Source of the DNA: Vairimorpha necatrix
Taxonomy: Eukaryota
Direction: 5' to 3'
Assembly: GCA_036630325.1 (NCBI GenBank)
Contig: CP142730.1
Location: 124,001-188,000 of the forward strand
Length of the DNA: 64,000 nucleotides
Both the position numbers and the translations under genes were made by a program. The notes beneath the pieces are model-generated. The model was not told the DNA's origin. It saw only the letters and a list, made by a program, of their open reading frames with translations, and ran no database searches. Below are positions 8,813-47,372 of the stretch, piece by piece (within the stretch, counting starts at the first letter, position 1; the number at the start of each line of letters is the position of its first letter).

Positions 8813-8948
8813 GGAATTTACCCCTAACCCACAATTCCGATGAGCAACAAAAAAGATAACAACTTAAATAAATATGTTAACTTAGACTCACCCTCTTCTA
8901 CTTCGGATCAGGCTACATGCCGGATCACACATATATTAAAAATTAATT

Positions 8949-9245
8949 GTAAAAGACAGAATCAGCAAAACGGTAAAAAAAATAACCAAAAATTTTATGA
9001 AGAGAAAAATCATAAATGATTGACGTCACACGCCAGTATACTTTAACGTCTCGCTCGTAAGAGAAATTTTTGTTCCCATAGGATACAAATCCCTTGAAAC
9101 ATTACGACTAATTGAATTATTAATTAAATTTGTGTATTGTAAAAAGACATAATCAGCAAAACGTGAGAAACCCTACTAAACCTCCCTCGAAAAAAAACAT
9201 CAAATAAATAAAAATAAAAACAAAATGTTTATTGCAAAAATAGAC
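8949..9245 (-). repeat. Degenerate stacked copies of the LINE/SINE 3'-end sequence
   Basis: GTAAAAGACAGAATCAGCAAAACG...ACACGCCAG...TGTTCCCATAGGATACA (8949-9090), a second GTAAAAAGACATAATCAGCAAAACG (~9139) and the tail AAAATGTTTATTG (~9223). All are homologous to 14593-14865 and 23963-24880. Confidence 0.75.
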
Positions 9246-9343
9246 AACCAGTTTCGAAACAAACGTTCCTAGATCATCATTATAAGTTCCATACAAAAGG
9301 AGGTCAAATCCGCCCAAAGAAAAATACATTCAAATAAAAGAAA

Positions 9344-12300
9344 CTAGTGTATGCTTTCCCGTTTTAAAAACGGGATCTAAATGTTAAGTTTTTTAATATA
9401 TCTTTCATCCTTAAATTTTGAAGAGTTTCCATTTTGGGATGATTGAATTTGACAGAGTTTAGACATGATTTTTAAAAATACTTTTTAGCAACATATAAGA
9501 AGTTATGTTGTTTTAAAACATTTAATAATCTCAATGAGATAATTTTGGGAACTTCAAAGCTAAATTGTTGACACTTATTGTCAACAAATTTTTATTGTTA
9601 AACTTTTTTGTAATTTTTCTAGAAGGGTTAAATAAATTCTAAAAAACGATTCTGACGATATTTTGGAACGGAGTTTTACAAAAATAATAAAAAGAATCGA
9701 AAAGTATTAACTGACAACATACACACTTAGAATAGTCAAATTAAAGCAATAAATCTATATTTGATATTATATTAACATAAAAGGCCCAAAACATATCGTT
9801 TAGATTTTACAAAACCACAAAAAAGAGGGGTAAAAAATTAAATAAAATTCTTTTATATATATGACTAGCGTATGCTTTCCCGTTTTGAAAACGGGATCTA
9901 AATGTTTTGTTTGGAAATATGTATTTCCCCTTTTAATCTTGTTAAGTTTCCATTTTGGAATGAATGAATTTAAAAAGGAGAAAATATAATTTTAAAAATA
10001 CTTTTTAGTAACATATAAAGAGCAAAGTCGATCTAAAAACATTTAATAATTATAATGAGATAATTTTTGGAACTTCTAAGCTCAAGTTTTGACACTTATA
10101 TTCAACTTTTTTTTTGGTACATGTTTTTGTGAATTTTTCTAGAAGGGTTAAATAAATTCTAAAAAACGATTCTGACGATATTTTGGGACCAAGCTTTTCG
10201 AAAATAACAATCATAATTAAAATGTATTAACACATAGTATACACACTTGGAATAGTCAAATTAAAACATTGAATTTATTTTTAATATTATAATAACATAA
10301 AAGCCTCAAAATGTATCGTTTAGAAATTTCAAAATCACAAAAAAGAGGGGTAAAAAATTAAATAAAATTCTTTTATATATATGATGACTAGTGTATGCTT
10401 TCCCGTTTTGAAAACGGGATTTATAGTTTTGTTTTATAATATGTACCTCCTTTATCTTTTTGTGAATTTCCAAGTTTGGGAAGAGGGAATTTGAAAAGAA
10501 ACTATGATTTTGAAAAATACTTTTAAGTAACATATAAGGAGTAAATTTGATCTAAAAACATTTAATAAATATAATGAGATAAGTTTGGGAACTTCTAGCT
10601 CAGTTTTTGACACTTATATTCAAAATCTTAATTAGTTAATTGTTTTTGCAATTTTTCTAGAAGGGTCAAATAAATTCTAAAAAACGATTCTGACGATATT
10701 TTGAAACTGAGTTTAACAAAAATAATAATTAAAATTAAAAAGTATTAACTAATAACATACACACTTAGAATAGTTAAATTATCGCAATAAATCTATATAT
10801 GATATTTAAATAACATAGAAAGCCTAATATATATAGTTTAGAAATTTCAAAGTCACAAAAAAGAGGGATAAAAAATTAAATAAAATTCTTTTATATATAT
10901 GACTAGCGTATGCTTTCCCGTTTTGAAAACGGGATCTAAATGTTTAGTTCTTAAATTTGTACCTCCATTATATTCTTTTCGAATTTTCCTTTCATAAGAC
11001 GAATTTGAAAAGGAGAAAACATGATTTTGAAAAATATTTTTTAGTAACATATAAGGAGATAAGTTGATCTAAAAACATTTAATAATTATAATGAGATAAT
11101 TTTGGGAACTTCTAAGCTCAAGTTTTGACACTTATATTCAAAATCTTTATTAGTTAATTGTTTTTGCAATTTTTGTGGAAGGGTTAAATAAATTCCAAAA
11201 AACGATTCTGACGATATTTTGGAACTGAGTTTTACAAAAATAATAATCAAAACAAAAATGCATTAATATAAAGTATACACACTTAAAATTATTAAATTGA
11301 AACATCTAATCTATATTTGATATTATATTAACATGAAAGGCTCAAAACATATCGTTTAGAATTTTTATAACCACAAAAAAGAGGGGTAAAAAATTAAATA
11401 AAATTCTTTTATATATATACTAGCGTATGCTTTCCCGTTTTGAAAACGGGAATTGTATGTTTTGTTTTATAATATGTCGCTCCTCGGTGAATTTTTGTGA
11501 GTTTCTATTTTGGGATGTTAGAATTTGATAGGATGAAGACATCGTTTTCAAAAATACTTTTTAGTAACATATAAAAGGTAAAGTTGAGTTGAAAACACTT
11601 ATGAGTCTCGTTGAAATAATTCTTGGATTTTTAAGCTCAATTTATGACACTTATATTCAACTTTTTTTTTGTTAATGTTTTAGTGAATTTTTTCTAGAAG
11701 GGTCAAATAAATTCTAAAAAACGATTCTGACGATATTTTGGAACTGAGTTTAACAAAAATAAAAATCAAAATTAAAAAGTATTAACTAATAACATACACA
11801 CTTAGAATAGTCAAATTAAAGCAATAAATCTATATTTGATATTATATTAACGTAAAAAGCTCAAACCATATCGTATAGAATTTTTAAAACCACAAAAAAG
11901 AGGGGTAAAAAATTAAATAAAATTCTTTTATATATATGACTAGCGTATGCTTTCCCGTTTTGAAAACGGGTTTTGAATGTTTTGTTTTTTAATATGTCGC
12001 CCCTCGGTAAATTTTGGTGAGTTTCTATTTCGGGATGATTGAATTTGATAGGATGAAGACATCGTTTTTAAAAATACTTTTTAGTAACATATAAGGAGTT
12101 AAGTTAAGTTAAAAACACTTTTGAGTCATATTGAAATGCTTTTATAAACTTCTAAGCTCAACTTTTGACCTTTATCTTTAAAATCATTATTGGTTAAATG
12201 TTTTTACAATTTTTCGCGGAAGGGTCAAATAAATTCTAAACAACGATTCTGACGATATTTTGGGACCATGCTTTCCAAAAATAACAAACTAAATCAAAAT

Positions 12301-14561
12301 GTATTAACACATAGTATACACACTTGGAATAGTCAAATTAAAACATTGAATTTATTTTTAATATTTTAATAACGTAAAAGCATCAAAATGTATCGTTTAG
12401 TAATTTCAAACCCACAAAAAAGAGGGGTAAAAAATTAAATAAAATTCTTTTATATATATGACTAGCGTATGCTTTCCCGTTCTAAGAACGGGATTATTAT
12501 GTTTTGTTTATGGTATGTACCTCCTTTAATTTTTTTTTTGAGTTTCCATTTTTGGTTTGACAAAGAAAAAGAAATAGTATAATTTAAAAAACACTTTTTA
12601 TGAACATTTAAATAATGAAATGAACTTATAAACACTTATGAATCTTAATGAGATATGTTTAAAACTCTAAAAGCTCAGTTTTATTCACTTACATTCAACT
12701 TTTCTTTGGTACATGTTTTTTAAATTTTTTCTAGAAGGGTTAAATAAATTCTAAAAAACGATTCTGACGATATTTTGAGACCAAGCTTTTTAAAATTAAG
12801 AATTAAAACAAAAAAGTTTTAACATTTAGTATACGCACCTACAATTATCAAATTAAAACATTAAATCTAAAAACGATATTATATTAACATAATAAGCTAT
12901 TATAAGAAGTTTAGATTTTACAAAATTATAAAAAAGAGGGGGAAAAAATTAAATAAAATTCTTTTATATATATGATATATATATATGACTAGCGTATGCT
13001 TTCCCGTTTTGAAAACGGGATCTAAATGTTTAGTTTTTTAATATGGAACCTCCAGGGTAAATTTTGTTAAGTTTCCATTTTAAGATGAATGAATTTGAAA
13101 AGGAGAAAACATGAATTTAGAAAAATACTTTTTAGTATAATATAAGAAGTAAAGTAGAACTAAAAACATTTAATAATTATGATGAGATAATTTTTGGTTT
13201 TTCTAAGCTCAATTTTTGACACTTATATTCAATTTCTTTTTTGTTAATTGTTTTTAGGATTTTTCGTGGAAGGGTCAAATAAATTCTAAAAAACGATTCT
13301 GACGATATTTTGGAACTGAATTTTACAAAAATAATAATAAGAATAAAAATGCATTAATATATAATATACGCACTCACAATCATCAAATTAGTGCATTAAA
13401 TTCATTTTTGATATTATAATAACAGAATAAGCTATAAAAAGAAGTTTAGATTTTACAAAATCATAAAAAAGAGGGGTAAAAAATTAAATAAAATTCTTTT
13501 ATATATATGACTAGCGTATGCTTTCCCGTTTTGAAAACGGGATCTAAAAGTTTAGTTTTATAATTTGTGCCGTCTCAGTAAATTTTGTTAAGTTTCCATT
13601 TTGGGATGATTGAATTTGACAGGGTGAAGACATAATTTTTAAAATACTTTTTAGTGACATAGAAGATGTAAAGTTAAGTTAAAAACACAATTTAATCTTA
13701 CTTAGATAATTTTAAAGCACCTAAAGCTCATTTTTGACACTTATATTCAAAATCTTTATTGGTTAATGTTTTTGTGGATTTTTTCGTGGAAGGGTCAAAT
13801 AAATTCTAAAAAACGATTCTGACGATATTTTGGAACTGAGTTTAACAAAAATAATAATCAAAATTAAAAAGTATTAACTAATAACATACACACTTAGAAT
13901 AATTAAATTAAAGCAATAAATCTATATTTGATATTGCAAACACACAAAAAGTATGAAATATGTAGTCTGGACATTTCAAATTGACAAAAAAGAGGGGTAA
14001 AAAATTAAAAAAAAATTCTTTTATATATATGACTAGCGTATGCTTTCCCGTTTTGAAAACGGAATTTGAATGTTTAGTTTTTTAATTTGTCCCTAATTGG
14101 TAATTTTCGTTAAGTTTCCATTTAAGGATAATGAATTTAAAAAGGAGAAAACATGATTTTTAAAAATACTTTTTACCAACATATAAGAAGTTATGTTGTT
14201 TTAAAACATTTAAAAATCTCAATGAGATAATTTTGGGAACTTCTAAGCTCAATTGTTGACACTTATTGTCAACAAAATTTTATTGTTAACTTTTTTGTAA
14301 TTTTTTCTAGAAGGGTTAAATAAATTCTAAAAAACGATTCTGACGATATTTTGGAACTGAGTTTTCTATAAATAATAAATAGTTTAGAAAGGCATTAATA
14401 TATAGTATGCGCACTTACAATTATCAAATTTAAGCATTGAGTTTAAATTTGATATTATAATAACACAATAAGCTATAATAAGAAGTTTAGATTTTACAAA
14501 ATCACAAAAAAGAGGGGTAAAAAATTAAAAAAAAATTCTTTTATATATATGATGATGATGA
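9344..14561 (-). mobile_element. Head-to-tail array of 10 non-autonomous Helitron-like units (~515-527 bp)
   Basis: On the minus strand each unit begins TCATATATATAAAAG and ends hairpin CCCGTTTTCAAAACGGG - AAAGCATACG - CTAG. CTAG junctions at 9344, 9865, 10388, 10903, 11420, 11940, 12462, 12989, 13511 and 14033. Array is flanked by A and T, with no TSD. Confidence 0.88.
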
Positions 14562-14952
14562 TAAAATAGATCCGATACAGAATGATATGAAAAATCAGCA
14601 AAAACGAAGAAAAGCCACCAAAAACTCCACTGCAAAAGAAAAATCATCAATAATCGCGCTTACACGCCAGCATACCTTTACGGCCTTGCTTGTAGGAGAA
14701 AAAATTCGTTCCCATAGGATACATCCTTAGTCATATATGACTAGAGACCCAATTTCATGGATCTGATGAAAAACGACATCGCCTGGCTCAATACACCATT
14801 TAAGAACACAACTCAGTTCAGCGGAAAAAATACAGCATCAGTATCATGCCCGACCTCTCCCAGGTCAATTATATAAATATAAATTTTGTCGTTAACAAGT
14901 TAACTTAATTTTTCTTCCATTTCTGGATATTTACTTTTTTAATTAATCTTCA

Positions 14953-17900
14953 TTAATTATTCATGTTATTGTTGATCTTCTTGAGTTTGTTATTGAATAG
15001 TATCGCTCTGGAGACAACCATCCTGTCTAGGGACTCAATGATCAAGCAGAGTTCTTTTATATGTTTCGGATTATTCTTCAACCCAATCTTATTACCAAGA
15101 AGTTGCTTTGTTTTTTCTTGGTTATTTGTTTGTGAACATGTTAGTAGAGGCAGTTTATTTCGCCACGATGATCTTATTTCGTTTAATGACGAGCACTCTA
15201 ACAGGAATGTTCTAAATTTTCTTGTGGTCCATCACACAAAAAGCACATCATTCTATAACTCACTGGAATTCTCTTTGCATTGGCTATTGAGGAGGACCAC
15301 CTTACTAGATTACATCTTAATCTAGTGTATGTTCTTATCTTTCTATTGTTGACTTTGTTTATGACATATTTCAACTGTGAGCTTCTTATGTCATAAATAT
15401 CTGCTATTGATGCAGCTACAGAAGTATTTATCGTTCTCCTTCTTCTTAGTACATCAGTTATTTTTGTAGTAACAGATACATTGTTACTTGTTTCATAGTC
15501 GTTGCCGACGAATCTTTTTAATCACCTTTGCGTTCTTGTAGACCAGGTGGTTTTTCTTTCTTTCGGATTGATTGAGATTATATCCGAGATTATAGTTTTA
15601 TTGTGTTTCCACTTATTATATGCTCTAAATCTACTTAAGGCTGCTTGTATATGAATTCGTTCTATACTGAACTCATCCATTAATCTATCTAGAGGAATCA
15701 CTACTCGTTTGAATATCATCCTCAATGATGTTCTTAAGATCCTATTGATCTTACCTGCTCTTGTACTTGACATTCACCACAGTTCACTACCATACATTAG
15801 TGTGGGTACTAGTACACATTTGATTAAGATCGCCTTGAAGTAAAGGTTGATGCTATTATTCATCAACTTGGGCATCAAGGCGTCCAAGGCTTTCTTGCCA
15901 CGCATTGCTGCGTCTTTGACCAAGTGTTCTTCTAGCGTGTTTCTTTTAATTAAGACACCTAGATATCTGTATTCAGTGACTTCCTCAATCACACCAAAGT
16001 CTGTACTGAGAGAATACAAACTTCGGAATTCTTGTATTTTAGAATCAGCAGCCCATTCTAATATTCCGCTTTTTGTGAAGTTAATCCTCATTCTGTTATT
16101 AACCGCCCAATTAGAAATTCTATTGATCTTATTATTAAGATCATCAATGTTGTTTCCGAAGACAACAATACCATCGGCGAACATCAGTCCTGGAACTCTT
16201 GTATTTGATCTTGGGATCAAGACACCATCTATGCCGTCAAAAATATCATTGATAAATATATTGAACAGCATTGGAGAACAAGGGCATCCTTGTCTCACTC
16301 CTTTTCTGTAGCCATAGCCACTTGATGTTTCTCCGGCGATTTTTATTCGCATGGTGGTGTTTTTATAGATATCCTTTATTGTATTTATCAAATACTTGGG
16401 GATATCTAGATTTTCTAGCTTACTAAATAATAAGTCGTGACTTACATTATCATAAGCTTTCTCAAAGTCTATGAAACACATCACTGTGTTCACGCCTCTG
16501 AATTCTCTTCTTCTTACTACTTCAAGTAGGGAAGTAATTTGGTTCACACATTCTTCACCTTCTCTAAATCCTGCTTGGTATTTAGAGATGATGTTATTTT
16601 CTTCAACAAATTGGGTCAATCTGTCGTTAATTATCTTGAGATAGATCTTACTAATTGTGTTAATTACGGAGATTCCCCTATAATTATTCAGATCTGTCTC
16701 ATCTCCTTTTTTGTGGAGGCAAATCATGTTTGCCATGCTCCAGTATTCAGGAGGACTAATTCCACAAATATATTTATTAAATTCATTTAGCATGAATTTA
16801 AAGAATTTATCTTTTACTGCTCTAGTCAGTAAGTGTTTGTATAGCTCGGTTGGAATCTCATCAGGACCGGCTGCTTTGTTATTTCCGCATTTCTTCAGTG
16901 CGGATAAAAATTCTTCATCTGTTATCTCTAGAGGAAGATCAACAAGATCTACTTTATCATAGGCATTGACATCTATATCATTCTCTGACGCCAATTCAGC
17001 GTAAAATTTATTCGCTATTTCTAGCTTCTTTGCTCGGCAAGTCTGAAGAATCTTATTGTGGTCAATTAGAGCCACTTGATCCAAACGAATGGAAACACTT
17101 CTATTTTTCAGCCATTGCCAGAATTCTCTTGATCTATTACTTTTAAAGAGCTTTATTCCTCTCAAAGCCCAAAGTTTCGATCTATCTTTGCGAATCAATT
17201 TCTTCGTATCTTCTACTCTCTTTTTGATATCTACGAGCCGGGCTAAATTGATTTCATTGTGATTTTTCATAACCGCTTTTGCTGCTAAACGCTTTTCTTT
17301 GAAGACTTTTAAGTATCTCCATCTCATTGTAAGTCCAGTGTGGACCCTTTTCTTTTTGTAGATCTTTAAAGATGTACAAGCTTTTTTAATAATCTCGGGA
17401 AGATTATTCATACTTAATTGTTGATTACTCAACTTCATTTTAAGCCTTTTAATCACTTTCGGATTTTCCAGCATCTTTTTATCATAGACTAGTTGATCAG
17501 AGATCTTATCAACAGTTAGTGAGATATATTTTTTGAGCACTAAGTGATCACTTAGTACCCAAGACTTTGATATAATGATCTTCTCATTATCGTATTCTTT
17601 CAGCCTAAAGATGGTATCAATTTTTCTCTTAGATCTTTTCCCATCTTTGAGAATCCTTGTACCATCTTTGCTGTTATACTTCATCGTAACTGGTAAACCA
17701 ATTACTACTAGTTTTTTCTTGAGAGAAGAACTCTGCATATTCATATCTCCCACTACTATAATCTCACTATAATAGTTTCTGAATTTCTCTTTTTCTAGAA
17801 GAGACAAAAGTCTGGCAAGCACCTCCCTTTTGAGATCCCTGTCTTGTGGTATGTAGACATTTAAGATTAAGTATTTAATCCACTTGCCTTCTGATCTAAA

Positions 17901-18650
17901 CTCAACCACTGTTTGCAGAATGTTTGAGTCAGTTCCCTTTTTGCTACATCTAATAGCTCCAGTGTTTCTCACCAGAGTTATTAAACCTGGTTTATTTTTT
18001 CCACTGCTTGGTGTTTCAACAGCAGTGTATTTTTCTAGTCTAAGGGATCTATTAGATTGTCTCCAAGTTTCCTGTAGACACATAATTTCTGGTTTCTCCC
18101 TCTTAAGAAGAAACTCAAGTTCTTCTCTCTTGTGGGAGAGATGGTTGATGTTGAGACTTAAGAGTTTTATCTTCTCTCTAATCTCTTTTATTGTTTTATT
18201 AGTTTTTTCTAATCCTTTTCTGTTATCATTTAAAACTTTGAAGCCTTCAGCTTAAATAATCTTAATCAATAAATTTTTATGTGTTTTTTCAACTACTATC
18301 TTTGTTAATGACGCATTTCTACGTCTAAACTTTCGTATTGTAAAAATGGCAGAATCTAATTCAGACTCTCTTTTTACAAGACATTTTCTTAGGTCTTTAC
18401 AATCGACGGGAATTCTTTGCATATTAACTATACAGAAATTTTCTTGTAGTTTTCTAGTCCATAGATTTTTCCGCTGATAAAATGAAGTTATGCACTTCAT
18501 CCTTCTACGGCTTCTGAAAGCTCCAAAAGGTTTATTTAATCCTGTAGGATTAGTGATTTTTTTATTTAATAAAGATAATAAATATTGAATTTTGAAAGAG
18601 AAATATCTCTTGTAAAACTTAGACTTTAAAAGAATATCAACTTTATTCAT
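14953..18650 (-). pseudogene. LINE ORF2 (AP endonuclease - reverse transcriptase - CCHC), disrupted
   Basis: Track ORFs 18252-18650, 15774-18083 and 15522-15773 share one frame. The stretch between them reads KIKLLSLNINHL...EIMCLQETW (APE), then GDMN, IDTIF, SDH; RT motifs KAAGPD, NYRGIS, QAGFR, FIDFEKAYD, GVRQGCPCSP, FADG (catalytic D>G), YRYLG. In-frame stops at 18252, 15774 and 15522. Frameshifted LLCDGPQENLEH(F)LLEC near 15200-15250; ends ...NNMNN* at 14953. Confidence 0.92.
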
Positions 18651-20396: not shown

Positions 20397-23300
20397 TGAT
20401 GTATCCCACTCTGAAATACGTCTCCAAAATACTTTTATTAAAATTCAGTTTATTATTAATATTTTTATTGTTTAATCCAGGTCTGTCCCCGGTCGTTGTT
20501 CGGTCTGTTTCCTTAATTCTTTGTTGGTTGTGTTTCATCTTGTATTGTGTGGGTCAGGGTCAATTTTTATTTATAGCTTTTATTGTTTATTTGGTACCCA
20601 AACAAACAAACAAACAAAACAAAATTAATAAATGTGTGGATCTTTAAGCAAGGATACCACAACCTGCCCTCTCCATTTTCAGGCCTGCAAATCAGTTGGT
20701 GTTGTTTTTATATTGTCAACATGTATCCACTCCTTCCTTTCGTTAATTTTTATCCAATTCTTTTTCTTACTCACTTCTGTAACCATGTAAGGCCCAACGT
20801 AACAATCGTCAATCTTATTGCCTGTAAAATTCTCGTCTTTTAATTGTTTTCCATTTTCTTGTACTACCAACTTTTTCCTTATATATTTTTTTAGAACTTC
20901 CATGTCCTTGAATTTATCTATCATATAACAACGTGATAGTTTATCGGCTATGTGATTAGATGTTCCTTCAATCGTGGTCAATTCTACATCGTATTTGTTT
21001 AGAATTAATTTCCATCGTTCGGTTCTTTTAAAAATTCCTTATTTTTAAATATGCAATTTCTACTATCAGTCTGTATTTCTATTTTGTATCCCTGTATTAA
21101 TGTTCTGTAAAATTCCAATGTTTTAACGATGGCAAACATTTCTTTCTCTACAATCGTATAATTAAGCTCAGACTGCGAAAATTTTCTGCTATAATAGCCT
21201 ATTACGCCACGTTCTTGGAATAAGACTGCTCCCATCCCGTTATTTGACGCGTCGCATTGTATTGAGAACTTTTTGCTAAAGTCGGGCAGTCTTAGCTGTG
21301 CTGTAGTTTTGATCTCTTCTTTTATCTCTTTTAACGCCAAGTTTTGGGCGTCTCCCCATTTCTCTTTGCAATCATTTTTCAATAGGCGCGATATATAAGA
21401 GACTCGCCTACTTACATCTGTTAAGAAATTGCGATACCAGGTGATTATTCCCATTATCTTCTGTATATCCTTTTTCCTGCATGGAATTGACTCTTCGTTT
21501 AATAGATTATCGATATTTTTAGTATCTATTCTGATCCTGTCGTTTTCAATCACGTTTCCAAGTATTTCTAGTCTCTTGGTCGCAAACATGCTTTTTTCAA
21601 AATTTATTTTAACTCTGTAGTCCATTAGTCGGTTTAATACCTCTAGTAATTTCTCATTATGTTCTTCAGGAGTTGACCCATATATCACTATGTCGTCTAT
21701 ATAAACGATTATATTTTTGATTCCGTGTAATATATAATTAATCGTCTTTTGGAATAATTTGGGTCCTGATTTTATTCCAAATGGTATTCGTTTATATCTG
21801 TATTGTTCTCCAAAAATCGTAAAGCTTGTAATGTCTCTGCTACCCTCTTCAAGTTCTAGTTGGTTAAACCCGTTTTTTAAATCAATTTTGCTGTAATAAG
21901 TGTTTCCTCCAAGTTTATATAAACTTTCATAAATTTTTGGTATTATACATATTTCATCTTTTATAAATTTGTTAACTGTACGATAATCAACTACTAACCT
22001 CAGTTCCTTATTTTTCTTTTCGATAAAAAATGAAGGGCTAGCATAATAGTTTCTACCTCGTTCAATGATATCGTTGGTCAGTAACCTTGATATTTCCTTT
22101 CTAGCATCAGCCTCGTACTTTACTGGTACGGTATAGTATTTAAGTTCCAGTCTATGGTCTCTAATTTTTTCATCAATATAAAGGCTTAGAGGTTCTACCT
22201 TAATTTTATCGTGTTCTTCATTCTTTTTTATATATTCAGTCAATCTACGTGGTATGTTCGTTTCATTTAAAATTTTCGGTTCTTTTATTAATAAAATTCT
22301 GTCATATAGTATAGCATCTATTTCATCTGTTTCTATCTCTTCTGCGCCGATCATTGGTAAAATAGCGTTGTTTACAATGATTCTTTTGTTTTTATAGTCA
22401 AGTAACCAGCCGTTGTTTAGTAAAAAATCACTTCCTAAGATCATTTTTTCTGGCAAATTCTTGAGAATATGTACATCTTCATAAGTCACTTTATTTAGTC
22501 CCGCGAGTCTTATTTCCACTCTGGCTTTTTTATTAGTCTTTCCTTTTGCTCCGTTCCCAAATATAAGTGATATTTCGTCAGTTTCTTGTGTCTTTATTTT
22601 TAACTTATCAGCTATTTCGGCACTCATAAAGCTCTTATTCGCTCCGCTATCGATCATTATGTCAATTGGAGTTTCGTTGATGGATCCCCTTAATTGAGTC
22701 TTCTCAAAATTATGAACGTTTTCCTTTATAAAGTACACGTTTCTATTGTCTTTATTATCGTTATTTCTTTTGTAAAAATCCTTATCATATTTAGTGCATT
22801 CCTCAGTGGTGTGGTTAGAATATTTATGCAACTTGCAGTATTTGTCTTTTTTAAATTCTGAATGGTTATTATGCATTGGTCTATTATCATTACTATTGAT
22901 GCTACGAAATTCTCTAATCTCTTTAGCTCTTATCGAAATTTTTATTTCTAAGCCCTTTAAAAATTCAAATGAAGCTTGGTAACTACCGAAGCCATATTCC
23001 AGTACTCTTCCGTACGTGAACTTCCCCAAGCCGGCATGGAAAGCTTCCTCAAATAGTCTGTCAACCTCTTCATCCATTAGTTTTTCCATTGTCCTTACGA
23101 TAGTTAGATTTTGTTTAATCGCGTCATAGTATTCTTGAATTTTCGTATAGTTTGTCTGGTGTATATTTAACAATTTTCTTCTGTAGTATCTTCGTTCCTC
23201 TAGAGGAAATTTAACCGAAATTAAATATTCCTTAATCTCATTCCATGTTTCATATTTATTGTAGTCCATAAGTTTATCGTCTTTTATCAGTTGTCTTAAT

Positions 23301-23793
23301 ATTGCTAACTGTATTCTTTTATCCCATTTGTTAACTTCTATTAATGTTTCAATTTCTTGGCACCATTTTAAGATGTCCAAACTGTCGATGTCTTCTATAA
23401 TTTTTATTTCTTGGCTAAGTTTGTCTTCTAGTCCTTCTATCTTCATTGAGAAGGTTAGTGATTTAGTGTTAAATTGCTGTTCTTTTTTCTTCTTATCGTA
23501 TTCTTTTGGGTTCTCGTCTTTTGAGCTCAAATTGATGTATCCCACTCTGAAATACGTCTCCAAAATACTTTTATTAAAATTCAGTTTATAATTAATATTT
23601 TTATTGTTTAATCCAGGTCTGTCCCCGGTCGTTGTTCGGTCTGTTTCCTTAATTCTTTGTTGGTTGTGTTTCATCTTGTATTGTGTGGGTCAGGGTCAAT
23701 TTTTATTTATAGCTTTTATTGTTTATTTGGTACCCAAACAAACAAACAAAACAAAATTAATAAATGTGTGGATCTTTAAGCAAGGATACCACA
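20397..23793 (-). mobile_element. Ty3/Gypsy LTR retrotransposon lacking the integrase core
   Basis: TG..CA LTRs 23533-23793 and 20397-20661 (differ by one substitution and one CAAA unit), 5-bp TSD CCATC (20392-96, 23794-98), PPT GGAGAGGGCAGGT. Confidence 0.95.
21005..23674 (-). CDS. Gag-protease-RT-RNase H polyprotein, frameshifted near the RNase H end
   Basis: CKLHKYSNHTTEEC knuckle-like motif, IDSGA protease, LRLVVDYR / IPFGIKSGP / YIDDI RT, CDAS..GMGAVL and EKEMFAI RNase H. Continues in 20679-20981 (NHIADKLSR...GPY) with no HHCC or DDE. Confidence 0.9.
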   Translation of the reverse strand: MKHNQQRIKETDRTTTGDRPGLNNKNINYKLNFNKSILETYFRVGYINLSSKDENPKEYDKKKKEQQFNTKSLTFSMKIEGLEDKLSQEIKIIEDIDSLDILKWCQEIETLIEVNKWDKRIQLAILRQLIKDDKLMDYNKYETWNEIKEYLISVKFPLEERRYYRRKLLNIHQTNYTKIQEYYDAIKQNLTIVRTMEKLMDEEVDRLFEEAFHAGLGKFTYGRVLEYGFGSYQASFEFLKGLEIKISIRAKEIREFRSINSNDNRPMHNNHSEFKKDKYCKLHKYSNHTTEECTKYDKDFYKRNNDNKDNRNVYFIKENVHNFEKTQLRGSINETPIDIMIDSGANKSFMSAEIADKLKIKTQETDEISLIFGNGAKGKTNKKARVEIRLAGLNKVTYEDVHILKNLPEKMILGSDFLLNNGWLLDYKNKRIIVNNAILPMIGAEEIETDEIDAILYDRILLIKEPKILNETNIPRRLTEYIKKNEEHDKIKVEPLSLYIDEKIRDHRLELKYYTVPVKYEADARKEISRLLTNDIIERGRNYYASPSFFIEKKNKELRLVVDYRTVNKFIKDEICIIPKIYESLYKLGGNTYYSKIDLKNGFNQLELEEGSRDITSFTIFGEQYRYKRIPFGIKSGPKLFQKTINYILHGIKNIIVYIDDIVIYGSTPEEHNEKLLEVLNRLMDYRVKINFEKSMFATKRLEILGNVIENDRIRIDTKNIDNLLNEESIPCRKKDIQKIMGIITWYRNFLTDVSRRVSYISRLLKNDCKEKWGDAQNLALKEIKEEIKTTAQLRLPDFSKKFSIQCDASNNGMGAVLFQERGVIGYYSRKFSQSELNYTIVEKEMFAIVKTLEFYRTLIQGYKIEIQTDSRNCIFKNKEFLKEPNDGN

Positions 23794-23962
23794 CCATCTT
23801 CTTACAATCGATCTTCTTCTTCTACTTTGACAGCAGACACGACATTTTTGACATTAATTAAAACATCTTCATTTATGATTTCTAATTTAGAAATATCATT
23901 GTTTCCAGTAGCTAACTGAAGGTTTTCGCTACTGGTATCATTTGGAACATCGGAATTAAAAT
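23794..23962 (-). pseudogene. Duplicated internal fragment of LINE ORF1, split by the Gypsy insertion (continues 20391-20300)
   Basis: NSDVPNDTSSENLQLATGNNDISKLEIINEDVLINVKN...EEEDRL*EDG matches ORF1 NSNVPNVTSSETLQLATGKNDVSNLEIINEDILINVKN. On the other side of the TSD, DGKRKCIGVS...DVKLD matches DGKRMCLE...NVKLD. Confidence 0.85.
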
Positions 23963-24880
23963 TGTTTATTGTAAAAAAGACAGAATCAGCAAAACGAAGA
24001 AAAGCCACCAAAAACTCCACCAACCAGAAAAACATCAATAATTGCGATTACACGCCAGCATACCTCAACGGCCTCCCTTGTAGGAGAAAAATTCGTTCCC
24101 GTAGGTAACAGGTCCTTAGTCATCTCTGACTACATATTTCGCGGACCTGACGAAAACACAACTCCTGGTTCAATACACCATTTAAGAACACAACTCAGTT
24201 CAGCGGAACAATACAGCTTCAGGATCATGCCCAATTTCTCCCAGGTTAAAAATATGAAGAATTACTCGAAAGTTAACGGTGTCCTTCTCACCAGCAATGG
24301 GTCTCCCACCCCTAGAGTATAGCTGACCCTACTTACCAACCAGCAGCAAAAGGTTGGTAAGACTTAGAGATCTGCACCTAGTTAAAAAACATCAGTCCCA
24401 CCCTAAAAAAAATAAAAATAAAAATAAAAATGTTTATTGTAAAAAAAGACAGAATCAGCAAAACGAAGAAAAGCCACCAAGCCACCAAAAACTCCACCAA
24501 CCAGAAAAACATCAATAATTGCGATTACACGCCAGCATACCTCAACGGCCTCGCTTGTAGGAGAAAAATTTGTTCCCGTAGGTAACAGATCCTTAGTCAT
24601 CTCTGACTACATATTTCGCGGACCTGACGAAAACACAACGCCTGGTTCAATACACCATTTAAGAACACGACTCAGTTCAGCGGAACAATACAGCTTCAGT
24701 ATCATGCCCAACCTCTCCCAGGTTAAAAATATGAAGAATTACTCGAAAGTTAACGGTGTTCTTCTCACCAGCAATGGGTCTCCCACCCCTAGAGTATAGC
24801 TGACCCTACTTACCAACCAGCAGCCGAAGGTTGGTAAGACTTAGAGATCTGCACCTAGTTAAAAAACATCGGTCCCACCC
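23963..24880 (-). mobile_element. Two tandem ~440-480-bp non-coding SINE-like units sharing their 3' ~270 bp with the LINE 3' UTR
   Basis: Copies 23963-24403 and 24404-24880 are near-identical. Their 3' part matches 14593-14865. Both end ...CTTTTTTACAATAAACA, and the copy nearer the rDNA adds a (TTTTTA)n tail. Confidence 0.7.
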
Positions 24881-31787: not shown

Positions 31788-32265
31788 CTAGCGCATGCAT
31801 TCTTTTTTTTATAACGCTATCAGCTTGATTCGTTCTTCTTCTTGTTTTTTATTTAAACTTCTACCTGTGCTGGGTGAATTTAAAAAGGAAAGATCATGGT
31901 TTCTAAAAAAGTAGAAATTACATCTAAACAAAACTTAAATAGAAAATTAAATCATACCAACCTAATACCTATAATGAAGTATCTTCTAAATGTTTTAGGT
32001 TCAATTGTTTTATACTAATTATACACATTTTTATGAGTAATATGTTTTCGTTTTTTTTTTTGTGGAAATGTTAAAAAAATTCTAAAAAATGTCTTTATGA
32101 TATATTGGATTTAAGTTTTACAAAAACATAATTCGAATAAAGATGTATAAAAATATAATACATGCTCTTCGAAAAATCAGTTTGAGAATCTCAACTAGAT
32201 TAAATCTTAATGACAAAATAATTATAAAGTTATAAAATTGGTGTGTTTTAAAACACAAAAAAAAC
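31788..32265 (-). mobile_element. Highly degenerate solo Helitron-like unit
   Basis: CTAGCGCATGC end, GAATTTAAAAAGG, and decayed core GGAAATGTTAAAAAAATTCTAAAAAATG...AGTTTTACAAAAA at about the same spacing as in the array units. Confidence 0.6.
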
Positions 32266-33078: not shown

Positions 33079-34476
33079 TTAATTTCTAAATCTTATAAGA
33101 TGCAATTGAAGCATTTCCTTATCTTTATTACATACTTCTTCAAGTACTAACTTTCTACATGTTATGTCAACGTGATACATCTTATGATTTATCATCACAA
33201 ATAATAAATCATCGTCAGTGATATATAGACACACGGGCATACGATGCTTGGAACTGAGTTTACTAGTAATTTGATAGAGTAGGAATGGATCATATAATTT
33301 TCTAGGAATGTTCAACAGTTTACCATCACATTTGTCAATTACTATTTCTTTTTTTGTGTGTTGATATGTGTGTTCATTTTCTGCTAAAGAAATATTTCCA
33401 TCTTCGACTGTCTTAAATTCAAAAGATTTTGATTTTATTGTCGTCGTTTTATTTTTTCTTTCTTCATCGGCATAAAAAAATTCTTGAAAATATTCATTAT
33501 GTTCGATAGTAGGAGGTACTAAGCAATTATCTATTTTCACGTCACAATATTCTTCCGAGCTCTGAATATAAATGTCTGAAGAAGACTCGCTTTCTTGTCT
33601 TGATCCATGAGATTCTTCGTAGTGTTCATTATTACAAAGGCGTAGCTTATGATTATTATCATTGTATGAGTTTTTATCAATACAACATCTTTTTGTTTTA
33701 AAACAATGCTGTTTATAATCATAACTGCAGCACGGTCTTTTATTTAAATGACATCTACAATTATTTTTACGATCATTGGTGCAAGCTCTCGGTCGTGTCT
33801 GTTTACAGCACGATCTCTTGTCAATGTAACAACATGAACCTTTATATCTTTCAAATTGACGGGGCGCTAATTCTTGAGTTAGAAAACACTTCTTGGATTC
33901 TGTCATTTTACCTTCATGATCTTTAATGTTACAGAATGATGTTGTTTCTTGCGTATTACAACACGACATGTGAGGTTGTCTTTTCATTGTAAAACCAGAT
34001 TTGTTGACTAGCATCTGATTGCACGAGCATAGACTTTCGGCCCTTTTATCTGTACTACAACAGGTCTTGGATTCTACATTCTTTGCTCCGCAACATGATT
34101 TAGGTCTTTCTTCCTTAATAGCACAACATTCTTTGGTAGATTCACTTAGTATTTTAGGTCTACATGGACAATCTCCTATGCACATTGCGTATTTACAACT
34201 GATTCTGTCTTTGATGTATGGGACAAGAGCTCCATTAGAATACAATACCATTGTTTCTGTGCAATCTTCCCACCCAAATACATAGGCCTTTTCAATGTTC
34301 ATTTTATTCAATAATTTTACCATGGCATTGATATTTGTAGAATTAGCTACAACCCCCCGTCTACCTACAGCCTTGCAAATATCTTCAGGTATTTGTTCGC
34401 ATGTTCCTTCTGCAATGACAGCAGTAAATGGTCTTATTGTTTTAATGAAAAGAATGAGCAAGTTCACGAAAAACAT
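33079..34476 (-). CDS. EnP1-like endospore/spore-wall protein with an expanded Cys-rich region
   Basis: Hydrophobic N-terminus. NSTNINAMVKLLNKMNIEKAYV..W...MVLYSNGALVPY...KYAMCIGDCPC and C-terminal VCLYI....LFV match my recollection of Encephalitozoon EnP1 (NGSNIHEAIKYLQAMNIKKAYV..W..MVLYDNGALAPF..KYVLCVEACPC). CCCC motif before the ATG. Confidence 0.82.
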   Translation of the reverse strand: MFFVNLLILFIKTIRPFTAVIAEGTCEQIPEDICKAVGRRGVVANSTNINAMVKLLNKMNIEKAYVFGWEDCTETMVLYSNGALVPYIKDRISCKYAMCIGDCPCRPKILSESTKECCAIKEERPKSCCGAKNVESKTCCSTDKRAESLCSCNQMLVNKSGFTMKRQPHMSCCNTQETTSFCNIKDHEGKMTESKKCFLTQELAPRQFERYKGSCCYIDKRSCCKQTRPRACTNDRKNNCRCHLNKRPCCSYDYKQHCFKTKRCCIDKNSYNDNNHKLRLCNNEHYEESHGSRQESESSSDIYIQSSEEYCDVKIDNCLVPPTIEHNEYFQEFFYADEERKNKTTTIKSKSFEFKTVEDGNISLAENEHTYQHTKKEIVIDKCDGKLLNIPRKLYDPFLLYQITSKLSSKHRMPVCLYITDDDLLFVMINHKMYHVDITCRKLVLEEVCNKDKEMLQLHLIRFRN

Positions 34477-34539: not shown

Positions 34540-34665
34540 AACAAACTTAAACAATTTTACAAATAAACTCAAACAATATTGTAAACAAACTTAAACAGTA
34601 TAGCAAACAAACTTAAACAATTTTACAATGGAACTTAAACAATTTCGCACACAAACATAAACAAT
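34540..34665 (-). promoter_or_regulatory. ~21-bp tandem repeat of AACAAACTTAAACAA upstream of the EnP1-like gene
   Basis: About six imperfect copies 64-190 bp upstream of the ATG. An identical 17-mer lies upstream of 44245. Confidence 0.55.
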
Positions 34666-34825: not shown

Positions 34826-36425
34826 TCATATATATAAAAGAATTTTATTTAATTTTTTACCCCTCTTTTTTGTGGTTTTAAAAATATTAAACTTCTTATT
34901 ATAGCTTATTGTGTCATTGTAATATCAAATTTAAACTCAGTGCTTAAATTTGATAATTGTAAGTGCGTATAATATATATTAATGCATTTTTATTAGATTT
35001 ATTATTTTTGTATAACTCAGTTCCAAAATATCGTCAGAATCGTTTTTTAGAATTTATTTAACCCTTCTAGAAAAATTGCAAAAACATATAACCAATGAAG
35101 ATCTTACATGTAAGTGTCAAAAATTGAGCTTAGAAGTATTCAAAATTATCTAATTATGATTTTTAAGTGTTTTACAACAACATTACTCCTTATATGTCAC
35201 TAAAAAGTATTTTTAAAAATCATGTCTAAACTCTGTCAAATTTAATCAGCCAAAAATGGAATTTTTACAAAATTTACCGAGACGGGACATATTATAAAAC
35301 AAACACATTTATCCCGTTTTCAAAACGGGAAAGCATACGCTAGTCATATATATAAAAGAATTTTATTTAATTTTTTACCCCTCTTTTTTGTGATTTTGTA
35401 AAACCTAAACTTCTTATTTTCCCCTTATTGTGCATTAAAAATATCAAATTTAGATCTAATGAAGGATTTTGACTGTCATATGTGCGTGTACTGTATGTTA
35501 ATACATTTTGATTATAATTTTTTGTTTTGTAAAACTCAGTCCCAAAATATTGTCAGAATCGTTTTTTAGAATTTATTTAACCCTTCTAGGAAAAATTCAC
35601 AAAAATATTAACCAAAGAAAAGTTGAATGTAAGTGTCAAATTTTGAACGTATAAACATTATAAAGTTATCAAATTGGATTTTATAGAATAATTTGATTTG
35701 AATCTATATTCAAGTTTTGAATTGGAAATTATTTTAATGTTGTCTAAAATTGCATTTCCCCTTTCTTTTCAAACCAAATATGGCAACTTAAAAAAAAATT
35801 AAAGGAGGTACATACCATAAACAAAACAATCAAATCCCGTTTTCAAAACGGGAAAGCATACGCTATCATCATATATATAAAAGAATTTTATTTAATTTTT
35901 TACCCCTCTTTTTTGTTTTTGTAAAATCTAAACTTCATATTTCATACTTATTGTATTTTAAAAATATCAAATTTACGTCTAATGTTTCGATATGATTATT
36001 GTAAGTGTGTATATTATGTATTAATGCATTTTTATTCTAATTATTATTTTTGTTAAACTCAGTTCCAAAATATCGTCAGAATCGTTTTTTAGAATTTTTT
36101 TACCCTTCTAGAAAAACTTTAAAAACAATTGACAAAAGAAGAAATTGGATGTAAGTGTCAAAAACTGAGCTTAAGAAGTTCCCAAAATTATTACATTGAG
36201 ATTATTAAATGTTTTAAAACAACACTACTTCTTATATGTTACTAAAAAGTATTTTTGAAAATCATGTCTAAACTCTGTCAAATTCAATCATCCAAAATGG
36301 AAACTTTACAAAATTTAAGGATGAAAGACATATTATCAAACTAAACATTTAGATCCCGTTTTCAAAACGGGAAAGCATACGCTATCATCATATATATAAA
36401 AGAATTTTATTTAATTTTTTGCCCC
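34826..36425 (+). mobile_element. Helitron-like array: 3 full units plus a ~40-bp truncated 5' end
   Basis: A|TCATATATATAAAAG start. Units end at 35343 (CTAG), 35865 and 36384 (CTA followed by TCATC). Same hairpin and core block as the other arrays. Confidence 0.88.
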
Positions 36426-37296
36426 TAAAACTCAAAAAAGAGAAAATTAAAAATGGTAAAATTTTTGTTTTAAAACAAAATTAAATGCTTTCATTGTATT
36501 TTATAGACAAATTTAGACCAGATACACTATTCAATTATTACTTTTAACTTATTTTCAATTCTGAAAAAAAATATTGAATTCTCCTTTTTAATTCCTCCGT
36601 CCAAAAACAGAAAGGAAAATCAACAAAATTCAAAATGTCAAAATGGACTGCTAAACGATTGAAAATTATTTAAAATAATGTTTTATTAATTTATAAACTA
36701 ATTTTATTGTCAATTATAAACTTAATAATTTATTTGTTCTTTCAAAAATTATCTTTACTCCTTTTAAATTCTTTAATCAGAAATGGAAAATCATAGATCG
36801 AAAAAAAAACAAAAATAACAATTGTAATAATTTGATTTACAGATATTTTAAATTTTAATATCACCAAATAACTCTGCTTTTTAAATTTATATTATAATTT
36901 CTGTTTCTATGTTATAAGAATTATGTTTTTCATTTCAGAAATGGAAATCAAAATATTAAAACAAACAAACACTACAAAATTGATTATAAACATTAACAAC
37001 AATATCAATGAGTTTTATAACTAATTGAAAATCAATTTCGAAAAGAATATTATTTAATGTAGATTATTAATTCTAAAAAATCAAATTCTTCTTTTTGTTT
37101 TCTTCCTTCCCAAAATGGAATTTTAAAAACTATAAATAAAATTTTTTTCTCCACCCTTCATTATGTTTATGAAAAATCAAGCAAACAACGATTTGAATAA
37201 ACAACCCAAAGCAACTGTTACTATCTCTCAGGAGATATGTAGTAATACTGAAAATAACAATGTTATTTTCTATGAGGCCAACACCTCTGTATATAA

Positions 37297-38356
37297 TCAT
37301 CATCATATATATAAAAGAATTTTATTTAATTTTTTACCCCTCTTTTTTGTGGTTTTGAAATTTTTAGACTACGATATGTTTTGGGCCTTTTATGTTTAAT
37401 ATAATATCAAATTTACATTTTAACGTTTTTATTTGATCATTGTGAGTGCGTATATTATGTGTTAATGCATTTTTATTCCATATTATTATTTTTGTTAAAC
37501 TCAGTTCCAAAATATTGTCAGAATCGTTTTTTAGAATTTATTTAACCCTTCTAGGAAAAAATCCCAAAAACATGTACCAAAGAAGAATGTTGAATGTAAG
37601 TGTCAAAAACTGAGCTTTAGAAGTTCACAAAATCATCTCATTATAGATTAATAAATGTTTTAAGCTCAACTCTACTCCTTTTATGTCACTAAAAAGTATT
37701 TTTCAAAATCGTGTCTTTACTCCTGTTCAAATTCATTCATCCCAAAATGGAAACTTAACAATATTCACCGAGGAGGAAATACATATTATCAAACTAAACA
37801 TTTAGATCCCGTTTTCAAAACGGGGAAAGCATACGCTAGTCATATATATAAAAGAATTTTATTTAATTTTTTACCCCTCTTTTTTTGTGGTTTTAAAAAT
37901 TCTAAACGATACATTTTGAGCCTTTTACGTTAATATAATATCATATATAGATTTAATGTTTTAATTTGATAATTGTAAGTGCGTAAACTATATGTTAATA
38001 CTTTTTTGTTTTAATTATTATTTTTGTAAAACTCAGTTCCAAAATATCGTCAGAATCGTTTTTTAGAATTTATTTAACCCTTCTAGAAAAAATTCACAAA
38101 TTCATGTACCAAAAAAAAGTTATATATAAGTGTCGAAAATTGAGCTTAAAAGTTCCCAAAATTATCTCATAATAATTATTAAATGTTTTTAGCTCAACTT
38201 TACTCCTTATATGTTACTAAAAAGTATTTTGTAAATTCATGTTTTTTCCTTTTCAAATTTATTTTTCCCAAAATGGAAACTCAAAAAATAAAGTAGAAAT
38301 AAATGCCATGAACAATATATCAATCCCGTTTTCCAAAACGGGAAAGCATACGCTAG
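37297..38356 (+). mobile_element. Helitron-like array: 2 units
   Basis: A|TCATCATCATATATAT start, junction CTAG|TC at 37839/37840, end CTAG|T at 38356. Confidence 0.88.
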
Positions 38357-44912: not shown

Positions 44913-46997
44913 CTAGCGTATGCTTTCCCGTTTTGAAAACGGGATTTGAATGTTTAGTTTTTTAATATGTCTTTCATCCTTAAATTTTGTAAAGTTTCCA
45001 TTTTGGATGATTGAATTTGACAGAGTTTGGACGTCATCTTCAAAAATACTTTTTAGTAACATAAAAGAAAAATGTTGTTTTAAAACATTTAATAATCTCA
45101 ATGAGATAATTTTGGGAAGTTCTTAAGCTCAGTTTTTGATACTTACATTCAATTTCTTCTTTTGTCAATTGTTTTTAAAGTTTTTCTAGAAGGGTTAAAT
45201 AAATTCTAAAAAACGATTCTGACAATATTTTGGAACTGAGTTTAACAAAAATAATAATTAGAATAAAAATGCATTAACACATAATATACACACTTACAAT
45301 AATCACATCGAAACATTAGATGTAAATTTGATATTTTTAATACACAATAAGTCTAAAATTTGTAGTGTAGATTTTTTAAAACCACAAAAAAGAGGGGTAA
45401 AAAATTAAATAAAATTCTTTTATATATATGATGACTAGCGTATGCTTTCCCGTTTTGAAAACGGGAATTATATGTTTAGTTTTTTAGGATGTATTTCCTC
45501 CTTTAATTTTGTTAAGTTTCCATTTTGGGTTGATTGAATTTGAAAAAGAGAAAACAGAATTTGAAAAATACTTTTTAGTAACATATAAGGAGTAAAGTTG
45601 AATTTAAAACACTTATGAGTCTCATTGAAATAATTTTGGAAACTTCTAAGCTCAATTTTTGACACTTACATTCAATTTCTTCTTTTGTCAATTATTTTTG
45701 CAATTTTTCCTGGAAGGGTTAAATAAATTCTAAAAAACGATTCTGACGATATTTTGGAACTGAGTTTTACAAAAATAATAATTAAAACAAAAAAGTATCA
45801 ACTTATAACATACACACTTACGATAGTCAAAATCATTCATTAAGTTTATATTTGATATTATAATATCTTAATAAGACCAAAAGTAATAGTTTAGAAATTT
45901 CAAAATCACAAAAAAGAGGGGTAAAAAATTAAATAAAATTCTTTTATATATATGACTAGCGTATGCTTTCCCGTTTTGAAAACGGCATCGAAATGTTTAG
46001 TTTTATAATATGTATTTCCCCTTTTAATTTTTTTAAGTTTCCATTTTGGGATGATTGAATTTGACAGGATGAAGACATCTTTTTCGAAAATACTTTTAAG
46101 TAACATATAAGGAGTAAAGTTTTTAAAAACACTTATGAGTCATATTGAAATAATTTTGGGGACTTCTAAGCTCAATTTTTGACACTTATATTCAAAATCT
46201 TTATTTGGCAATTATTTTTAAAATTTTTCTAGAAGGGTTAAATAAATTCTAAAAAACGATTCTGACGATATTTTAGAACTGAGTTTTACATAAAAAGAAT
46301 AATATGAATTAAAATGCATTAATATATAATATACGCACTCACAATTATCAAATTAAAACGTTAAAATTAAATTTGATATTATATTAACGTAAAAGGCTCA
46401 AAATGTACCGTTTAGAAATTTCAAAACCAAAAAAAAAAAGGGTTAAAAATTAAATAAAATTCTTTTATATATATGATGACTAGCGTATGCTTTCCCGTTT
46501 TGAAAACGGGATAAATGTGTTTGTTTTATAATATGTCCCGTCTCGGTAAATTTTGTAAAAATTCCATTTTTGGCTGATTAAATTTGACAGAGTTTAGACA
46601 TGATTTTTAAAAATACTTTTTAGTGACATATAAGGAGTAATGTTGTTGTAAAACACTTAAAAATCATAATTAGATAATTTTGAATACTTCTAAGCTCAAT
46701 TTTTGACACCTACATGTAAGATCTTCATTGGTTATATGTTTTTGCAATTTTTCTAGAAGGGTTAAATAAATTCTAAAAAACGATTCTGACGATATTTTGG
46801 AACTGAGTTATACAAAAATAATAATATGAATTAAAATGCATTAATATATATTATACGCACTTACAATTATCAAATTTAAGCACTGAGTTTAAATTTGATA
46901 TTACAATGACACAATAAGCTATAATAAGAAGTTTAGAATTTTTAAAACCACAAAAAAGAGGGGTAAAAAATTAAATAAAATTCTTTTATATATATGA
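44913..46997 (-). mobile_element. Helitron-like array: 4 units
   Basis: CTAG junctions at 44913, 45435, 45956 and 46480; same termini, hairpin and core block. Confidence 0.88.
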
Positions 46998-47372
46998 ATG
47001 ATTTTCATAAGACTATTATTTTTTTTGAAGAAATAAATATTATATAATGTTTTTCAGTTCTTATACATTTAATAATATTTTTGGAACAAAAATCTTCCAT
47101 TGTAAAAAGTCAAATAGTTTTGGTGCAATGAGTCGGCATTGTTTTATGATGTTATGTGATGTTTTTGTATTGAACAATTATAGGCAAACTAAATTTAATC
47201 TATAAGTTACTGCATGCAGATTCACATTTTTTATAAATAAAAAACAGAAATTTTTTTTAGTGCAAAATGTCCTACATTCATCTGATAAAATTAGAGCGGA
47301 AATTTGACCAAAATTAATATTTTTACTTTTCATAATGGTTCAGATTTTGTAATTACAAAAAATGTTATCGAA

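Follow-up and report, generated by a model that had tools for sequence, protein, structure and literature searches.

Three head-to-tail arrays of units of about 520 bp lie in a 64,000-nucleotide stretch of the genome of the microsporidian Vairimorpha necatrix (assembly GCA_036630325.1, contig CP142730.1, positions 124,001 to 188,000). This stretch is called the window below and corresponds to G000:C5:124001-188000, where G000 is the 15.0-Mb genome and the C numbers are its 12 contigs. The explanation favoured here, at a probability of about 0.7, is that the units are non-autonomous Helitrons moved by the RepHel protein of a longer autonomous partner, and that the arrays arose by monomers stacking on the ends of resident copies.

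The Helitron family and its autonomous partner

BLAST with one unit, together with a scan for both ends, found 19 full units in the window, 514-537 bp long and with pairwise identities of 67-98% (mean 79.7%). They are distributed as in a preliminary description of this stretch, with ten at 9344-14552 (array A), five at 34826-38356 (array B) and four at 44913-46997 (array C). Tandem Repeats Finder missed the arrays, its longest period being 500. The termini also largely agree with that description: the 3' end is CTAG in 17 of 19 units and CTA in two, and every unit has a palindrome near its 3' end. The 5' end, stated to be TC throughout, is TC in 18 units and TA in the unit at 11419. Each of the three arrays is bounded by TC on one side and CTAG|T on the other and is not cut at random phases of the unit. 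Bare CTAG|TC joints, originally ascribed to all units, make up 9 of 17 junctions; one junction reads CTAG|TA and seven carry a stub, which consists of the element's own first bases (TCA, TCATCA or 13 nt).

Comparisons between loci draw on 899 kb selected around known ends and a further 7 kb of the genome, a sample that includes little of C10-C12. The 3'-end pattern occurs 228 times in the whole genome and never when reversed. The sample contains 94 loci, of which 40 are arrays of 2-10 units and 54 are single or partial (these "single" loci include partial elements and at least one miscalled dimer, at C6:62-63 kb). They comprise 172 short units, of 519 ± 4 bp, and 13 elements longer than 5 kb.

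The long elements, of about 5.1 kb, have their first 39 bp and a 3' hairpin-CTAG in common, and 8 of the 13 contain an intact RepHel open reading frame (ORF) of 1,421-1,434 aa with the Pfam domains Helitron_like_N, PIF1 and Pif1_2B. The translation also contains what we take, from reading by eye, to be the HUH and two-tyrosine motifs. Matches to PF14214 number 22 in the genome, of which 12 lie in frames that stay open for more than 1,400 aa. A RepHel element with the termini of the short units, which the preliminary description had proposed searching for, is thus present as 5.1-kb copies. Its statement that the window itself lacks a RepHel gene also stands, as a scan of 22 window ORFs detected none. 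Alignment of the short unit with the 5' untranslated part of the partner gives 62% over 463 columns, and the 520-bp units are therefore probably old internal-deletion derivatives of the autonomous element. The RepHel of the partner (an HUH Rep plus a Pif1 helicase) would then move the short units in trans.

The subterminal palindrome is 17 nt long and lies 14 nt from the 3' end of the unit, within the definition of a 16-20-bp hairpin at 10-15 bp given in the excerpt of PMC13286980 used here. In unit A9 it occupies 9879..9895 on the minus strand and forms 8/8 pairs. The last 40 nt of the unit fold at -9.3 kcal/mol (DNA parameters). All eight pairs also form in the two commonest variants (138/172 units) and in the variant of the partner, whose hairpin has a two-sided stem change relative to the short units.

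Insertion takes place between A and T. The last base of the outer 5' flank is A in 73 of 77 cases, and CTAG|T is found at 43 of 44 unselected outer 3' ends; the latter count is used because a T after CTAG in 89/89 cases was partly built in by the search pattern. Among alignments to paralogous empty sites, 15/22 are gap-free at the joint and two of the others are self-hits. Array B itself is an A|T insertion without duplication, and its empty paralogous site is identical for 25+25 nt. A single contig joins 34825 to 38357 across array B, with 21 letters on its short side; this is weak evidence, because it may come from the paralogous empty site. At one locus (L071, G000:C3:12715) insertion occurred at a host CTAG|T rather than at A|T, as an empty paralogue confirms. 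Units are also found in microsatellites of the types (TATAA)n and (TA)n (L073, G000:C3:224245-224788; L092, G000:C5:15306).

By every feature testable in the sequence, the family is a canonical non-autonomous Helitron (Helitron1) with an autonomous partner: the TC and CTAG termini, the hairpin, the A|T insertion and the RepHel partner all support the earlier identification as Helitron. Helitron2, Helentron and DINE-1 elements are characterised by a TT target, subterminal inverted repeats and an endonuclease domain. These classes were rejected on the basis of the AT target, a Pfam scan of the partner without an endonuclease family and a self-comparison without a terminal inverted pair. No near-identical donor that would suggest horizontal transfer was present among the best 120 of 3,900 matches to the Rep region. 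These 120 are 40-64% identical, and the named ones are nearly all from animals.

Neighbouring units and the assembly of arrays

The units adjoin each other far more often than random placement predicts. Among the first 100 exact, unselected 3' ends, 56 adjoin another copy. Genome-wide there are 70 bare and 39 TCA-stub exact junctions, against 83 outer ends counted with a stricter pattern. A rough sum gives about 0.002 exact abutments expected under random placement.

Adjacent units are, on average, 80.4% identical (n=91), compared to 79.3% between loci (n=14,479; p=0.08), and two of the 91 adjacent pairs reach 90% or more. Same-array pairs range from 79.6 to 80.4%, against the same 79.3%. Leaving out five pairs of one segmental duplicate, 12 pairs with at least 99% identity are located at different loci. 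Where two units match at 95% or more (34 pairs), their neighbours could be compared in 13 cases, and in none of these do they reach 90%. An array at C12:411 kb consists of three parts, each 100% identical over the compared stretch to a different locus, and one of the three is autonomous; autonomous 5.1-kb and 0.5-kb elements are mixed within single arrays. Since neighbours are unlike, identical copies lie elsewhere and autonomous copies are mixed in, these comparisons demonstrate that monomers move singly and pile up at resident ends, and that each array is built from unrelated donors.

Concatemers had been named in the preliminary description as the expected rolling-circle product, and the arrays as amplified satellites. 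The CTAG|TC joint is the junction found in Helitron circles (excerpt of PMC4778049), plant tandem arrays have been ascribed to concatemers (second-hand, via excerpts of PMC12628747 and PMC11934779), and the two adjacent pairs at 90% or more mean that some local duplication does occur. However, a concatemer from one circle gives like neighbours, and 89 of 91 adjacent pairs are below 90%, near random likeness, with 100% identical copies at other loci and elements of 5.1 and 0.5 kb in common arrays. Old concatemers that decayed would also not have kept termini that are 99% conserved. It is therefore very improbable that the arrays are concatemers of one donor, or local tandem amplifications into a satellite, that later diverged. 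As the arrays are short (2-10 units) and not homogenised, the term satellite overstates them.

Successive independent insertion at resident ends is instead a highly probable origin of the arrays. Each unit would be peeled off as a monomer circle and then pasted elsewhere. The outer 3' flanks suggest what the target may look like: TATAA is located at +5 to +9 in 40% of 89 such flanks, compared with 3% of 169,223 background AT sites. The element's own 5' end has TATAA at +8, which places it at the 94th percentile of background sites and at the 37th percentile of real flanks. The preferred target would then be A|T with TATAA a few bases on, and the 5' end of a resident element would supply such a site. 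The motif alone cannot give half of the insertions, and recruitment by RepHel at the resident end is therefore assumed.

Some loci record repeated or nested insertion. Two paralogous sites (L086, G000:C4:849839-850356; L126, G000:C9:753029-754053; right flanks 95% identical) hold unrelated units (81%), while a third paralogue is empty, so the same site was hit independently twice. Whole units also sit inside other units at A|T (L096, G000:C5:462853-463372; L005/L132, G000:C9:1037341-1037853), one inverted and one in the same direction.

Order of growth and alternative explanations

Two duplicated loci bear on the order in which units were added. In a duplicate pair on C8, identical over 2,698 bp on the left, one copy has six units and the other five. 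The extra unit is the 5'-most one and is 100% identical to the first unit of an array on C11. A two-unit array at C6:62 kb and an array of eight units plus a nested one at C9:1,036 kb have flanks that are 99.7% and 99.2% alike and a common 3'-most unit (99.2%); of the seven upstream or nested C9 units compared, none is over 90% identical to either C6 unit. In both cases, then, the 3'-most unit is retained and the differences lie on the 5' side. This suggests 5' growth, and growth mostly at the 5' side is slightly favoured here. In mechanistic terms, RepHel would also bind the 5' end of a resident element, and incoming monomers would land at its A|TC junction. Each landing would yield a CTAG|TC joint and a fresh A|TC site, so an array would grow by one unrelated unit at a time. 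A self-targeting Helitron, whose RepHel pastes monomers preferentially on resident 5' ends, is a tentative extension of this scheme and has less than an even chance of being correct. Such pasting could perhaps involve strand exchange between two RepHel-bound ends, and TCA could be the scar of primer extension at the nicked origin of the resident.

The stubs may be traces of the same process. Of 107 junctions, 38 have a TCA-type stub, and 28 of the 77 outer 5' ends have a stub. The possibility that they are heritable parts of the element was ruled out: members of near-identical unit pairs agree in their stubs in 10 of 20 cases, where chance gives 0.47. Stubs are carried by 17/70 last and single units versus 44/97 first and middle units (p=0.006, the grouping being post hoc). 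A founder in last position would predict such a deficit, provided that stubs are formed as incoming units insert at the 5' end of a resident. Most simply, a TCA stub would be a 3-nt duplication of the resident's first bases during such an insertion. The 5' fragments found in arrays were also considered as copies of the downstream unit in the same array; both fragments tested match other arrays best.

A number of observations weigh against stacking at resident 5' ends. Stubs are present on single units too (8/36), and about 6% of AT sites score as well as the element's 5' end, so recruitment of RepHel to resident ends has to be assumed. The evidence is contig sequence, in which genomic junctions mimic circle junctions, from a sample chosen around known ends (899 kb + 7 kb of 15.0 Mb). 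Both duplicated-locus pairs could also be read as loss of units by recombination. No age gradient was detected by private alleles or by nearest-neighbour identity: first units have on average 1.25 private alleles and last units 0.82, the paired comparison is 8 vs 10 and the Spearman coefficient -0.16 (p=0.07), a trend that leans the wrong way. Partners at 98% or more show no excess on first units, being found for 6/32 first, 9/65 middle, 10/34 last and 9/36 single units. In three pairs with at least 99% identity neither member is first or single. Autonomous-type copies are first in 6 of 12 array positions (3.5 expected, p ~0.10), which, like the single host target at CTAG|T, fits some addition at the 3' side.

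These last points also favour a variant in which RepHel inserts successive units chiefly on the 3' side (CTAG|T) and uses again the downstream host motif that attracted the founder. Last units would then be as young-looking as singles, as their partner frequency and fewest private alleles indicate; the frequent first position of autonomous copies, the host CTAG|T site used once and the three pairs lacking a first or single member also agree with it, and the route was raised by Du et al. (excerpt of PMC2267711). This order is nevertheless improbable, as the change at both informative loci is on the 5' side, with the 3'-most unit kept in place. In addition, G|T is a non-canonical target, A is the last base of 73/77 outer 5' flanks, and the host motif is no commoner behind arrays (16/38) than behind singles (24/51).

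A different kind of alternative is suggested by the mosaic structure of the units. Linkage between variable sites declines from an r2 of 0.097 to 0.008 across the unit, which demonstrates that the units are mosaics, evidently produced by recombination among units. Unit positions 1-46, 189-246 and 491-522 are 97-99% conserved, against 80-81% between them. In unit A9 the central block lies at approximately 10139..10196 on the minus strand (majority-base frequency 0.97 vs 0.80-0.81). No clear counterpart of it was seen in the autonomous element, and at a guess it is a cis signal for mobility. Perfect tracts of at least 110 bp are shared by 111 pairs under 95% identity, and several end in the central block. 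Tracts of at least 150 bp occur in 4/87 adjacent pairs and in 0.23% of 3,000 random pairs, so some local exchange takes place.

Host homologous recombination could therefore integrate monomer circles, or convert units, at the three blocks that hardly vary (46 bp at the 5' end, 58 bp in the centre and 33 bp at the 3' end), with exchange perhaps started by a RepHel nick. Arrays and mosaics would then be one process without target choice by the transposase. Besides the r2 decay, the perfect tracts and their excess among neighbours, this account is supported by an adjacent pair on C9 that has the halves of a third unit in circle order (12 vs 53 mismatches). Moreover, the new and old units on C8 are identical for the first 46 bp, where a crossover is indistinguishable from a paste, which keeps circle integration by homologous recombination a live rival. 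On the other side, reciprocal chimera pairs number 0/87 at 50 mismatches or fewer (the best has 67, no better than random), and a control in the opposite order also yields an 18-mismatch case. Young units are mostly full-length, so crossovers would be confined to 22-50 bp of terminal identity, and the TCA stubs are not predicted. As the origin of the arrays, host recombination is considered unlikely, and insertion of monomers at resident ends is retained.

Comparison with known systems and layout of the window

The comparisons in this section draw on excerpts of the papers cited. The 5'-TC, 3'-CTAG, hairpin, AT target without duplication and RepHel partner are common to the Helitron1 elements Helibat/Helraiser and the wheat Xuan-Feng pair of a non-autonomous and an autonomous element (PMC4778049, PMC13286980). 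Helraiser likewise prefers AT-rich sequence 3' of the site; in the present family the preference on the 3' side is for TATAA at a defined position, in agreement with the element's own 5' end. In the excerpted parts of these two papers, inverse PCR detected no tandems of wheat Xuan1 in the genome and Helraiser did not cluster at donor sites, whereas 56/100 ends here adjoin another copy.

Head-to-tail Helitrons are usually taken as footprints of rolling-circle concatemers. Perfect head-to-tail copies in Myotis (second-hand, PMC2267711) and arrays in plant centromeres (second-hand, PMC12628747) have been read in this way, but those in plants are truncated and combine many 5' ends with a single 3' end, while the units here are complete and unlike their neighbours. 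The closest precedent is the maize r1 region, where two adjacent unlike Helitrons with a CTAG|TC joint were read as consecutive insertions, either at AT at the 5' end or at GT at the 3' end (Du 2008, PMC2267711). That case is one pair with its order left open; here there are 40 arrays of 2-10 units among 94 loci, with two order-informative duplicated loci, a target motif and TCA stubs. In Fusarium FoHeli elements, repeated 5'-end pieces are ascribed to self-insertion (PMC5148889, PMC13342296). However, these elements are of the Helitron2 type and the duplicated pieces measure 31-85 nt and travel with the element, unlike the stubs here, which are mostly 3 nt and do not. Tandem dimers in Drosophila arise by double insertion, through target preference during active transposition (McGurk and Barbash, 10.1101/158386). 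In that case the site survives through duplication of the host target; in V. necatrix it would be recreated by the element's own 5' end, with no host duplication involved.

Helitrons are known from Nosema (PMC4202319, PMC4038834). Of two papers on microsporidian genomes, the main text of PMC12558613 mentions Helitrons once in passing and that of PMC12449221 not at all. No report of microsporidian Helitron arrays was found among the full texts searched, which does not establish absence from print. The head-to-tail arrangement has a precedent, glimpsed in maize, and is unusually common and traceable in V. necatrix. New here are the scale (about half of the copies), the match between motif and own 5' end, the stub pattern and the two loci that bear on order. 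With over 100 junctions, an intact partner transposase and duplicated loci, the question of insertion order becomes directly testable.

If self-targeting is real, it would be a route from transposon to tandem array without host target duplication, and would let a transposon persist in a parasite genome dense in genes, with about half of the insertions steered away from genes. Each array would be a 5'-growing, roughly chronological record of family subtypes, which recombination at the conserved central block would reshuffle. Self-targeting might then also be used to direct Helitron-based gene transfer to a landing pad. If it is not, what remains is still a well-documented and apparently active Helitron family in a microsporidian.

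Array A (9344..14561, minus strand) contains ten non-autonomous Helitron units: A1-A3 (14033-14552, 13511-14032, 12989-13510), A4-A6 (12462-12975, 11940-12461, 11420-11939) and A7-A10 (10903-11419, 10388-10902, 9865-10384, 9344-9864). Three TCA stubs (14553-14561, minus) are found at its 5' end, and a 13-nt stub resembling the element's first bases lies between A3 and A4 (12976..12988, minus). The mid-array unit A5 (11940..12461, minus) is 100% identical to the 5' unit of a two-unit array (G000:C6:62462-62983). An Rfam scan of 9000-15000 gave no match at E up to 0.1, hence no known RNA gene there. The junction also opens a short reading frame on the opposite strand, read by eye in two units; it is not conserved and was dismissed.

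Array B (34826..38356, plus strand) comprises units B1 (34826-35343), B2 (35344-35865), B3 (35869-36384), B5 (37303-37839) and B6 (37840-38356). The preliminary description was correct about its full units and omitted a 909-bp 5' fragment of an autonomous-type Helitron (36388..37296, plus), which is followed by two TCA stubs. The fragment is 93.7% identical to the 5' part of the element at G000:C6:512689 and 70-77% to other autonomous copies. Array C (44913..47001, minus strand) has four units, C1 (46480-46997), C2 (45956-46476), C3 (45435-45955) and C4 (44913-45431), with a TCAT stub at its 5' end. Unit C1 is 98.5% identical to B1, and B1 is identical to the last unit of an array on contig C2. 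An internal remnant of the family, decayed to 67% over 219 bp and in which no termini were found, lies at 31963..32179 on the minus strand.

The flanks of array A (8935-9092 and 14575-14877) are alike and belong to another repeat family. Two copies of this repeat, about 470 bp apart, lie at 23955-24735 and several more at G000:C5:192-199 kb; possibly these form a second family of tandem elements. The start of array B is some 350 bp upstream of an ORF of 465 aa (33079-34476) without a Pfam match, next to a 22-bp minisatellite (34540-34665). The end of array C is 53 bp past the stop codon of an ORF of 204 aa (44245-44859), which likewise lacks a Pfam match. Motifs made of a G-run plus A/T occur near microsporidian start codons. 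The 5' block of every unit (e.g. 9827-9832) has a G-run followed by A/T and resembles, by eye, the stretch before the start codon at 44245.

Other mobile elements in the window are a LINE-like ORF at 15774-18083, with a reverse transcriptase and a weak endonuclease match, and long terminal repeat (LTR) retrotransposon ORFs at 21005-23674, 47524-49699, 51715-55101 and 56040-57904. Several of the latter are in pieces; across them protease, reverse transcriptase, RNase H and integrase domains are found. The window also encodes an Obg-like ATPase that supports a microsporidian host resembling Nosema and Vairimorpha: its best named match is from Nosema bombycis (77%), followed by Vairimorpha and Encephalitozoon.

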